The position numbers were made by a program, and so were the translations under genes. From Eledone cirrhosa (taxonomy: Eukaryota): a stretch of DNA of 64,000 bases. Shown piece after piece: positions 47,427-54,497 of this stretch. The stretch covers positions 62,001 through 126,000 of the forward strand of contig OZ024743.1 in the NCBI GenBank assembly GCA_964016885.1, written 5' to 3'. Numbering within the stretch: the stretch's first letter is position 1; each line of letters opens with the position of its first letter. Below the pieces are notes generated by a model. It did not search any database. It saw nothing but the letters and a program-made list of their open reading frames with translations, and had not been told where the DNA came from.

Positions 47427-47461
<35 letters not shown>

Positions 47462-47499
47462 CAATATTAAATAAATGGAAAACTATATTTATAAAACCA

Positions 47500-47574
47500 T
47501 ATTTATTTCATTATATATATTTCGGGGATATCATATTAACAATATGCTATGCCTTCATCAGACAAAATACAATA
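47500..47574 (-). ncRNA. Type I hammerhead ribozyme (left arm)
   Basis: Reverse complement of 54232-54306. Confidence 0.8.
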
Positions 47575-47917
47575 TAAACAGTTTTATAGATAAATATATT
47601 CGACATACCGTAATAAACATCAACTTCATTTGAAGAGGTTTACTCTAGCAGTGAAAATACAGAGAGAAAGAAAAGAGGGAAAAACGAAAGAAAGAAAGAC
47701 AAAACGAAGAAAAGGAAGAAAAAGAAGAAAAAGAAAAAGAAGAAATGCATGGAACAAAATAGAGAGATGGAAAAATAGATAAAGTGAAGAGCTTCATGTA
47801 AAGAGACAGAAAGATATATATATATATAGAGAGAGAGGAAATAGAGATAGATACATATATATATATAGAAAATTAGGTAGTGGGAGGTCATTTTGAGTAA
47901 GTGTATCAATGATACAT

Positions 47918-47952
<35 letters not shown>

Positions 47953-49077
47953 GCTCAAGTATTAATGTAAGGGAGATATATAGAGAGATATAGAGAGATA
48001 TATATAGAGAAAAAAATTTAAAAATATCCAGACATATTCGAGGCGTAGAAAACCCTATGTTTTAATGTATTAGTATTTATAAAACTTACACTACACTGTA
48101 AATATCAGTATTCCTGAATGAAACAAGTATTCACAATGTGTGAAAATTCATTATCTTATGTTTAGTTTTAAAAATTCATATGTCTATGTGACAGCTACAA
48201 ATCTCAATGTGAATCCAACTGATTCACTCCGCAAACTCTAAGTTATCGGAAAACATTCTCAATGTGGTATAAAAATTTGAGCGTATTATTATTCTTGCGA
48301 TTACTCTACAAGATTATCTATCAAGCAGAAATAGAGAGCAGATTTCAATATACTAATCGAAAATATATATTATATTATAAACATAATAATAAGTAAAAAT
48401 ATAGAATAGAAAACTAAAAAAATATTACGAAAGAATATTACATAATAAAAATATTGCATATTAAAAATACTACGTATTAAAAAATATTACGTATTAAAGA
48501 TTTACATATAAAAATTTACATATAAAAATATACATATAAAAATTTACATATAAAAATTTACATATAAAAATATATAAAAATATTTAAAAAAATAAATAAA
48601 ATAAAAATAAAAATATTATAGAATACTACAATACTAAAAGAATAAAAGTAAAAATAAAAATAAAAATAAAAATAAAAATAAAAATAAAAATAAAAATGAA
48701 AATAAAAATAAACCACAAAAAAACAACCCTTCAAAGTTAATTGACAATATATTGCCACGTTCACTACAAGACAAAGCCAAAAATTATCTATCAAATCACA
48801 TCTAGCAAAGAATATCGTAAAAAGATTATGATGTCCAATTATGTCTACATATGTTCCTATGTTTAATATAGAAGTTTATCTAGTGTAAGGTTAATTCAAA
48901 AAATTTGGAGCATCGGCTTTTAGGGTAGCTTAATTTTTCATGAGGAATGTTTAGATAAAAATAAAAATAAATAAAATAAAATAAACAATAAAAAGAGTAA
49001 AACGAGGGAATCAAAGATTTAGGAATCAAAAGATTTATCGGCTAGTTCTCATATAAATATAAATCAAACTAAATATA

Positions 49078-52730: not shown

Positions 52731-53849
52731 TATATTTAGTTTGATTTATATTTATATGAGAACTAGCCGATAAATCTTTTGATTCCTAAATCTTTGATTC
52801 CCTCGTTTTACTCTTTTTATTGTTTATTTTATTTTATTTATTTTTATTTTTATCTAAACATTCCTCATGAAAAATTAAGCTACCCTAAAAGCCGATGCTC
52901 CAAATTTTTTGAATTAACCTTACACTAGATAAACTTCTATATTAAACATAGGAACATATGTAGACATAATTGGACATCATAATCTTTTTACGATATTCTT
53001 TGCTAGATGTGATTTGATAGATAATTTTTGGCTTTGTCTTGTAGTGAACGTGGCAATATATTGTCAATTAACTTTGAAGGGTTGTTTTTTTGTGGTTTAT
53101 TTTTATTTTCATTTTTATTTTTATTTTTATTTTTATTTTTATTTTTATTTTTACTTTTATTCTTTTAGTATTGTAGTATTCTATAATATTTTTATTTTTA
53201 TTTTATTTATTTTTTTAAATATTTTTATATATTTTTATATGTAAATTTTTATATGTAAATTTTTATATGTATATTTTTATATGTAAATTTTTATATGTAA
53301 ATCTTTAATACGTAATATTTTTTAATACGTAGTATTTTTAATATGCAATATTTTTATTATGTAATATTCTTTCGTAATATTTTTTTAGTTTTCTATTCTA
53401 TATTTTTACTTATTATTATGTTTATAATATAATATATATTTTCGATTAGTATATTGAAATCTGCTCTCTATTTCTGCTTGATAGATAATCTTGTAGAGTA
53501 ATCGCAAGAATAATAATACGCTCAAATTTTTATACCACATTGAGAATGTTTTCCGATAACTTAGAGTTTGCGGAGTGAATCAGTTGGATTCACATTGAGA
53601 TTTGTAGCTGTCACATAGACATATGAATTTTTAAAACTAAACATAAGATAATGAATTTTCACACATTGTGAATACTTGTTTCATTCAGGAATACTGATAT
53701 TTACAGTGTAGTGTAAGTTTTATAAATACTAATACATTAAAACATAGGGTTTTCTACGCCTCGAATATGTCTGGATATTTTTAAATTTTTTTCTCTATAT
53801 ATATCTCTCTATATCTCTCTATATATCTCCCTTACATTAATACTTGAGC

Positions 53850-53888
<39 letters not shown>

Positions 53889-54231
53889 ATGTATCATTGA
53901 TACACTTACTCAAAATGACCTCCCACTACCTAATTTTCTATATATATATATGTATCTATCTCTATTTCCTCTCTCTCTCTATATATATATATCTTTCTGT
54001 CTCTTTACATGAAGCTCTTCACTTTATCTATTTTTCCATCTCTCTATTTTGTTCCATGCATTTCTTCTTTTTCTTTTTCTTCTTTTTCTTCCTTTTCTTC
54101 GTTTTGTCTTTCTTTCTTTCGTTTTTCCCTCTTTTCTTTCTCTCTGTATTTTCACTGCTAGAGTAAACCTCTTCAAATGAAGTTGATGTTTATTACGGTA
54201 TGTCGAATATATTTATCTATAAAACTGTTTA

Positions 54232-54306
54232 TATTGTATTTTGTCTGATGAAGGCATAGCATATTGTTAATATGATATCCCCGAAATATATATAATGAAA
54301 TAAATA
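54232..54306 (+). ncRNA. Type I hammerhead ribozyme (right arm)
   Basis: Stem I tattgtattttgt/atgaaataaata; CTGATGA; stem II ggcatagcatatt/aatatgatatccc; GAAA-tatata-TA. Confidence 0.8.
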
Positions 54307-54430
54307 TGGTTTTATAAATATAGTTTTCCATTTATTTAATATTGTAAATATACTCCAAATATTTGTCGAGTGCTTTTATATCAGTTATAAATATTTACTA
54401 GTTGTAACCCAACAATTTTAAATATAACTT

Positions 54431-54497
<67 letters not shown>

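Follow-up and report, generated by a model that had tools for sequence, protein, structure and literature searches.

The locus and its native unit

The stretch of DNA analysed here, which we refer to as the window, comprises 64,000 nt of Eledone cirrhosa contig OZ024743.1 (assembly GCA_964016885.1, positions 62,001 to 126,000 of the forward strand). Between two (TA)n microsatellites it holds a palindrome of about 7 kb built from two inverted copies of a Penelope-like element (PLE). One is a full-length copy on the minus strand with an open reading frame (ORF) for a predicted reverse transcriptase (RT) and endonuclease, and the other is a 5'-truncated copy on the plus strand. A preliminary description of this DNA, made from the sequence alone, had drawn attention to the structure. 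The features are listed below, with positions counted in the window and the basis of each assignment in brackets; pLTR denotes the pseudo-long terminal repeat, and X and Y are the sites at which the minus and the plus arm, respectively, have their 3' ends.

47428..47459, no strand: (TA)n target microsatellite, left flank (sequence)
47460..51348, minus: minus arm, full-length Hydra-clade PLE copy, 3,889 nt (alignment, motifs)
47499..47576, minus: minus-arm type I hammerhead motif with its core at 47561 (motif scan; by-eye comparison with published Hydra hammerheads)
49078..51291 (49081-51291), minus: 737-aa open ORF (translation, motifs, homologues)
50460..51348, minus: 889-nt unique spacer of the palindrome, the 5' part of the minus arm (self-comparison)
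51310..51330, minus: hairpin 2, in the leader and 7 nt 3' of site Y, with a GCUC/GAGC stem, a bulge of UU and a tail of GCU
51338..51348, minus: what is left of the upstream pLTR, 11 nt that also end the plus arm and that adjoin the leader as in the native unit
51349..54435, plus: plus arm, a 3,087-nt copy truncated at its 5' end, opening near codon 278 and finishing at site Y (alignment)
54230..54307, plus: type I hammerhead motif of the plus arm, core at 54245 (motif scan)
54347..54435, plus: tail, the 89 nt that follow site X (54346) up to and including site Y (54435), in the plus arm only (alignment)
54352..54374, plus: hairpin 1, 5 nt 3' of site X, with an ACUC/GAGU stem, a bulge of UC and a tail of GCU
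54436..54496, no strand: (TA)n target microsatellite, right flank (sequence)

The inverted arms (47454-50459 and 51349-54352) are 99.6% identical over 3,010 alignment columns and enclose the 889-nt unique spacer. They differ in three places (one 6-nt indel, one 4-nt indel and one substitution), all of them inside microsatellites. Read in the sense direction, the minus arm consists of an 11-mer, a 46-nt leader, the ORF, a 1.5-kb 3' untranslated region (UTR) and the hammerhead motif, and ends at 47460, a base that it shares with the TA run; its 5' end lies 11 nt inside the upstream pLTR. The plus arm starts near codon 278, extends 89 nt beyond the end of the minus arm and closes with the same 11-mer (54425-54435, identical to 51348-51338), which occurs three times in the window counting both strands. 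Inverted PLE arms, this order of parts and 3' ends that both face (TA)n had all been put forward in the preliminary description, and the alignment bears them out. The same description had the 5' ends of the arms joined through a 2-nt CA microhomology, and this is absent: the plus-arm start is natively preceded by G, where the window has A, and the 11-mer by TA, where the window has TG. The inversion joint is blunt as written. The junction region (51338-51351) contains a 6-bp inverted repeat, and the best match at the junction is an imperfect 6/8 nt, which is equalled at 2.0-3.5% of positions without gaps and at 7-13% with gaps; a longer, patchy match that we also considered is not significant once gaps are allowed.

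Reads and contigs from four public runs (of 18 listed) were aligned to 50460-52730, a span that lies within the outer ends of the palindrome. The runs come from other individuals or species, since many positions differ from the window, and the family is heterogeneous, 323 of 1,304 contigs from run X1 being at least 99% alike. At 51349 the leader-side reads carry the tail base, in 51/51 raw reads of X16, over all of the contig depth in X1 and X5 and over 302.9 of 312.9 in X4, and one X5 contig extends by 11 further tail bases. The native ORF joint (50460 to 51349, on opposite strands) was also present in all four. That the unit natively runs from the pLTR end into the leader, as had been supposed, was thus seen in 4/4 runs, and a sister-family insertion elsewhere in the window has the homologous junction at 6711/6710. 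We conclude that the native unit is arranged head to tail and that the 11-mer is its pLTR-to-leader junction. The unit is 3,967 nt long, so that each arm is shorter than one unit.

The palindrome has the canonical features of a complex PLE insertion, with the upstream pLTR of the full-length copy reduced to an 11-nt remnant and an 89-nt tail at one end, and it is a real structure with the known PLE layout of a full copy head to head with a 5'-truncated copy. In the plus-arm hammerhead, helix III (54286-54293) is palindromic and cleavage is predicted after 54294; its minimum-free-energy fold includes stem I and has a stability not above that of shuffled sequences (z 0.65). An Rfam search gave neither a hammerhead nor any other real match (45 weak rows).

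The ORF product and the clade of the element

The translated ORF contains RWR (residue 37), DKT (118), the RT motifs DIANYYSSI (258) and YRDD (352) and a GIY-YIG-type core (616-632), together with three cysteine motifs, namely the CxCX5C linker CNCRDRSKC (596), the CxxC motif CDLC (694) and the CxH motif CKH (721). Inspected by eye, the translation has no CCHH motif. Residues Y617, Y630, G632, R641, E700 and N712 are invariant across 59 sequences, and R37 and W38 nearly so, with RWR here against RWK in the sister family of the window. We recovered 154 homologues, the best of them 35-42% identical; among the 120 listed, two bear animal names, both from the octopod Argonauta hians. Neither of the two proteins submitted matched Pfam, the PDB sequence search gave nothing significant and the profile search only weak RT matches (E 0.39), and viral contigs gave 13 pattern matches and no relative. 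Judged from its motifs, the product is probably a single protein of an RT followed by a C-terminal GIY-YIG endonuclease.

The Hydra clade of PLEs is distinguished by DKT replacing DKG, RWK, a CxCX5C linker, CxxC and CxH motifs around a conserved E and N, and the absence of CCHH (Craig et al., 2021; PMC8557442). By these motifs, with RWR standing where RWK is described, by the pLTR hammerhead and the (TA)n target, and with published sequences compared by eye, the element is classed as a Hydra-clade PLE. An octopus Hydra family, Hydra-1_Obim, and Penelope-13_HM with an inverted truncated 5' copy already appear in the published supplement (PMC8557442), and recently active Penelope-like families have been reported from an octopus genome (PMC13282606). 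An asparagine-rich stretch lies between the RT and endonuclease parts (residues 478-515; window 49750-49860) and is longer in the sister family (near 7380-7620); it recalls the asparagine-rich inserts described for rotifer Penelopes (PMC3846280).

The arms end at two family-fixed sites

Site X is at 54346, matching 47460 in the minus arm, and site Y is at 54435, 89 nt away. A second copy of the element family (58155-58511, about 89% identical) stops at X on one arm and at Y on the other, with hairpin 1 at 58426. When five inverted pairs besides the palindrome, this copy among them, were read by eye (58155/58511, 57157/54951, 60877/63069, 54800/54497 and 60455/60790), X was found at one end and Y at the other; four of these pairs belong to other families, and their tails are about 83-91 nt where measurable. 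The sister-family insertion (6507..9206, no strand), which has a 229-nt upstream pLTR, hairpins at 6794 and 6704 and a homologous leader, likewise has an inverted truncated arm that ends at Y. In this family and in 3/3 sister families, the two arms of an insertion resemble each other more than they resemble other copies.

We also counted 3' ends that run into a microsatellite, keeping only these and dropping references with a TA run. Of the 32 distinct ends, 23 came from outside loci and 9 from the window; 24 are followed, after 2-8 nt, by a hairpin of the type described below, against roughly 3-4 expected by chance with hairpins about 65 nt apart (our own estimate); an earlier, unfiltered count had given 9/15. 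We conclude that ends X and Y are programmed, in the sense that they are fixed in the family.

Several further insertions touch on these sites (outside loci are given L numbers). Next to the left flank, 47326-47428 is a tail-only insertion (X to Y) of another Hydra-like family with a short re-start duplication at hairpin 1, which suggests pausing at the hairpin. At 60455-60790 a Y-ended arm made up of the tail plus about 25 nt abuts an X-ended arm, the geometry expected of twin priming inside one pLTR. L012, L086 and L023 are full-length copies that start exactly at X or Y directly after (TA)n, and the set formed by these and L003 includes one tandem junction with a (TA)n run at Y; it is as if the start sites also acted as insertion or joining sites.

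A paired bulged hairpin lies just downstream of both sites

The ends of the plus and minus arms lie 7 and 5 nt, respectively, upstream of two copies of one small hairpin, hairpin 1 following X after 5 nt and hairpin 2 following Y after 7 nt. Its consensus of about 25 nt has a 4-bp RCUC/GAGY stem, a 2-nt bulge and an RCU tail. The pattern was derived from the window and then tested on 90 outside loci (77 from metagenomes and 13 from the genome collection), 54 of which have a start codon and at least 140 nt upstream of it. At least one copy was found in 44 of these 54 leaders and at least two in 31; the background was 0.5% in shuffled sequences, 0.3% in ORF windows (n=629) and 2/54 on the reverse strand. 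When the loci were grouped into 45 families at 80% DNA identity and searched with a relaxed pattern, 31 had two copies, eight had one and six had none, and the spacing of the two was 55-83 nt in 29 references. The hairpin is kept even in families whose proteins share only some 35% identity with the product of this ORF.

Covariation was assessed on 71 distinct hairpins that had been picked by the lower stem and tail only (63 from outside loci and 8 hand-listed from the window). The first pair above the bulge is Watson-Crick in 69/71 (C-G 44, U-A 24, G-C 1), where 5,000 shuffles gave a mean of 36 and a maximum of 50, and the next two pairs are Watson-Crick in 49/68 and 37/54. Alternative bulge sizes give only 1, 1 and 10 of 71, and the bulge is UU, UC or UA in 69 hairpins. 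The outer pair, which was left unconstrained, is G-C in 60/70, U-A in 6/70 and mismatched in 4/70.

Six new published Hydra consensus sequences in the supplement of PMC8557442 were compared by eye; four have the hairpin, with ends at X or Y. The word 'hairpin' has no occurrence in that supplement. No description of paired hairpins was found in the literature searched, which omits most subscription papers, older Penelope reviews and Repbase notes, and the matches for Penelope together with twin priming, to judge from their listings, concern other subjects. The paired bulged hairpin at the two start sites appears to be a new part, and from its position we consider it likely that the hairpins set the two reverse-transcription starts that make the PLE tail.

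Some related sequences were noted. The ACUC/GAGU letters of hairpin 1 also occur in helix III of some Hydra hammerheads. The loop of hairpin 1 in the sister family (9123-9150) is nearly the same as that of a hairpin in L022 (near 2617, on the minus strand), a metagenome contig that is unrelated. A short fold-back family (5450-5545, 39700-40050, 47146-47265 and 57864-58025) has a shorter tail and a GUGC/GCAC-like hairpin that falls outside the tested pattern. Finally, 13 of the outside loci of this animal retroelement family (L078-L090) sit in genomes filed as bacterial, most likely through host contamination of metagenome bins.

Probable priming at two sites and the nature of the template

We think it probable that the palindrome is one PLE insertion in which both strands of the cut (TA)n were primed at two fixed RNA sites, each likely positioned by its hairpin. 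A precedent is the Poseidon PLE of Anolis carolinensis, described as cutting and extending both strands, with two RNA start sites that bound the tail, uncleaved RNA and a predicted dimer (Frangieh et al., 2024; PMC11167929). By analogy, the protein, as a dimer, may bind each hairpin on uncleaved RNA; reverse transcription would begin a few bases upstream of each hairpin, at an AT-rich site, from each cut (TA)n strand; one target strand would prime at X and run for 3,889 nt and the other at Y and run for 3,087 nt; and the two cDNA ends would then be joined with little homology. The preliminary description had likened the insertion to L1 twin priming. The double-ended geometry holds up, but both starts are family-fixed rather than poly(A) plus a chance internal site; there is no poly(A), and a target-site duplication is undefinable within (TA)n. 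The palindrome itself, and the crossing of an uncleaved hammerhead, are ordinary for PLEs, because the typical layout has been published (a pLTR followed by the full-length copy, with a 5'-truncated copy inverted beside it and a tail on one end only; PMC8557442, PMC3846280, PMC8969392) and because the Poseidon starts and its uncleaved substrate are known.

As regards the template, we slightly prefer, tentatively, a single tandem read-through RNA on which the X-primed strand stopped at the Y primer. On such an RNA the arms lie end to end over 6,965 nt and no strand displacement is needed, and the X-primed arm stops 11 nt past the Y primer, which fits a collision. The 11-nt overlap fits abutting arms only on a tandem template; other inverted pairs overlap widely. 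The same geometry is seen, as far as the contigs reach, in L090, where the long arm starts about 18 nt before Y, and L038, where it starts inside the tail. Together with the window, these are the three of seven inverted pairs with a long arm at or near the start codon in which that arm stops within about 45 nt upstream of Y (counts read by eye, on small numbers). The preliminary description had about 7 kb copied from a unit of about 4 kb, by way of a tandem read-through transcript, a circular RNA or two RNAs. A head-to-tail unit and the crossing of an uncleaved hammerhead are supported, but a single 7-kb template, which is possible, is not required, because each arm is below the 3,967-nt unit and partnerless 5' ends also cluster in the same zone.

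Several observations weigh against priming at hairpin-set sites on one tandem RNA. Eight of the 32 3' ends lie outside the 2-8 nt range, and six of the 45 families have no hairpin even by the relaxed pattern. In the covariation counts the register of the bulge was seen in the same loci as were counted, and the shuffle ignores relatedness. A 16:7 ratio of G-U to A-C leans to the sense strand, and does not thereby distinguish RNA from sense single-stranded DNA. Single hairpins are no more stable than shuffled sequences (z -1.5 to -1.9), and the hairpin is tied to the ends by position only, its role being predicted. In the remaining four of the seven pairs, two long arms stop just inside the ORF (L078, L080) and two continue some 230 nt beyond Y (window 6711-6939, L084); in L080 both ends are at X; and most inverted pairs overlap instead of abutting. 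Six loci (L010, L012, L023, L060, L086 and L088) have 5' ends at X, at Y or inside the hairpin without a matching partner, so that the hairpin zone is a hot spot for 5' ends regardless. The inversion joint of the window itself was not seen in the independent reads or contigs shown from the four runs.

The data are accounted for nearly as well by two RNAs from the same donor, and we regard it as quite possible that each arm was copied from its own roughly unit-length RNA, both held on a dimer, or that one RNA was read twice through strand displacement. The long arm would then stop near Y at a pause site in the hairpin zone or at the RNA 5' end, and no 7-kb template would exist. This would account for arms that are each below unit length, for the same stretch having been copied twice in most inverted pairs and for the partnerless 5' ends, and in vitro, extension of both strands is reported on a short template that has one pLTR-ORF junction (PMC11167929). 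However, in a family that is heterogeneous the two arms show no point difference except in microsatellites, so that both RNAs must have come from one donor, and the stop 11 nt past Y becomes a coincidence with the hot spot. It seems improbable that the template was a single unit of RNA circularised by the hammerhead, with priming at X and Y and the X-primed strand circling round to the Y primer. RNA circles have been suggested as the PLE template where more than one unit was copied (PMC4209133), circle formation is described for animal retrozymes with type I hammerheads (PMC7229834; bioRxiv 10.64898/2026.07.22.740005), and tail-only inverted arms (L020, L088 and window 60455-60575) match a circle without displacement; a circle would also keep both hairpins and so let X-ended copies propagate. 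It nevertheless fits worst here, with 3 kb copied twice from the same circle; moreover, PLE hammerheads with a palindromic helix III are said to cleave poorly as monomers (PMC4209133), and for the Poseidon element no reads ending at the cleavage site were found (PMC11167929).

The hairpins could also act in DNA, with the GIY-YIG domain recognising a single-stranded or extruded intermediate and cutting a few bases upstream, so that X and Y would be cut sites. The tail has earlier been ascribed to endonuclease resolution of an intermediate (PMC8557442), the Drosophila virilis endonuclease is cited as needing the tail for recognition (in PMC11167929), bacterial GIY-YIG Ssn nucleases are described as cutting single-stranded DNA at hairpin repeats (PMC11893778) and the full-length copies that start at X or Y directly after (TA)n (L012, L086 and L023) would also fit. 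We nonetheless consider it unlikely, as the ends of the Poseidon tail were mapped directly as reverse-transcription starts on RNA (PMC11167929). Self-priming, in which one cDNA folded back and copied itself to leave a small hairpin as the junction, was proposed for rotifer Penelopes from palindromic junctions (PMC3846280), and the 6-bp inverted repeat at 51338-51351 with its 6/8 match, as well as arms identical outside microsatellites, could be read in this way. But that match is weak, and neither arm is a simple copy of the other, since the minus arm has no tail and the plus arm lacks the 889-nt 5' part; a second programmed end would be needed, and we rate this no higher than the circle. An assembly artefact (a fold-back chimera), or homogenisation of the arms by polishing or gene conversion, is very improbable. 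The junction was not seen in the independent data examined and such structures are said to trouble assemblies (PMC8557442), but the mirror symmetry breaks off precisely at X, a site fixed in the family; the two flanks differ; the spacer consists of 889 nt of native 5' sequence; and independent assemblies show this geometry as well.

Returning to hairpin-positioned priming, one extension of it, which we put forward only as a conjecture, is that in Hydra-clade PLEs the duplicated hairpin loads a dimeric RT at two fixed starts, that both target strands are primed on one tandem or circular RNA and that the element persists only through such templates. If true, a single mechanism would account for the tail, for inverted copies and for partial tandems of PLEs, and would provide a portable start signal for a telomerase-related enzyme. 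Priming would discard the used hairpin, leaving X-ended copies with no hairpin behind the ORF and Y-ended copies with one, and Y-ended offspring would arise only from tandem donors or circles. The preliminary description had called the element recent and possibly active. The identity of the arms supports a recent origin, but the activity of the intact arm in cis is doubtful because its upstream pLTR is down to 11 nt and its ORF is followed by no hairpin; this X-ended copy is likely a recent dead end in cis despite its open ORF. The origin of PLE tails and of tandem and inverted insertions has been an open question (PMC8557442, PMC11167929), to which the palindrome by itself contributes little. 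In the paired hairpin there is a concrete candidate for a clade-wide start signal, one that predicts which genomic copies can have offspring, and it may serve as an annotation marker for the ends of Hydra-clade elements.

Other features of the window

At least six further inverted PLE insertions of other families lie in neighbouring (TA)n runs, most with a one-sided tail:

54497-54800: inverted insertion
54951-57157: inverted insertion
57606-57788: inverted insertion
57864-58025: inverted insertion
60455-60790: inverted insertion
60877-63069: inverted insertion

Three insertions hold parts of related ORFs (7190-8056, 56031-57080 and 61144-61785). A different PLE-like RT-endonuclease fragment is present at 24236-25273, with no hairpin match nearby. 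Broken ORFs of non-LTR retrotransposons occur at 10190-12425, 26048-28569 and 35553-38248, and there is a host-like exon at 22025-22612, putatively of the LysM type.

Comparison with known systems

Like the Hydra clade as described by Craig et al. (2021; PMC8557442), the element has a single ORF for an RT plus a GIY-YIG endonuclease, with DKT, CxCX5C, CxxC and CxH and without CCHH, and it shares with that clade the pLTR hammerhead, the (TA)n targets, the inverted 5'-truncated copy by the upstream pLTR and the one-sided tail. It differs in having RWR for RWK and in its length, members of the clade being generally below 3 kb (a tendency and not a strict criterion), whereas the unit here reaches 3.97 kb because of its 1.5-kb 3' UTR. 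The tail is 89 nt against the 30-40 nt given for PLEs, and the paired hairpins found here go unmentioned in the clade description as consulted (PMC8557442).

The type I hammerhead, the palindromic helix III and the head-to-tail units are shared with non-LTR retrozymes and with the proposed circular PLE RNAs (PMC7229834, PMC4209133). Retrozymes are given as 170-400 nt and non-coding (PMC7229834), unlike this coding element, for which a circle is hypothetical. The likeness to L1 twin priming lies in the two target ends that would prime, the 5' ends head to head and the 11-nt duplication (bioRxiv 10.1101/2024.08.27.596794). L1, however, is described there as priming at poly(A) plus a chance internal match on one unit-length RNA, with arms that do not overlap, whereas the starts here are programmed and the arms share 3 kb.

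For Poseidon (PMC11167929), an adjacent pair of starts at the bounds of the tail, the use of both target strands, an uncleaved hammerhead, an AT-rich target and tandem transcripts have likewise been described. The Poseidon starts are placed at one AC-rich stem-loop, 111-118 nt inside the ORF; those of the present element, as deduced from genomic sequence, would lie in the non-coding pLTR, 55-89 nt apart and each just upstream of its own bulged hairpin.

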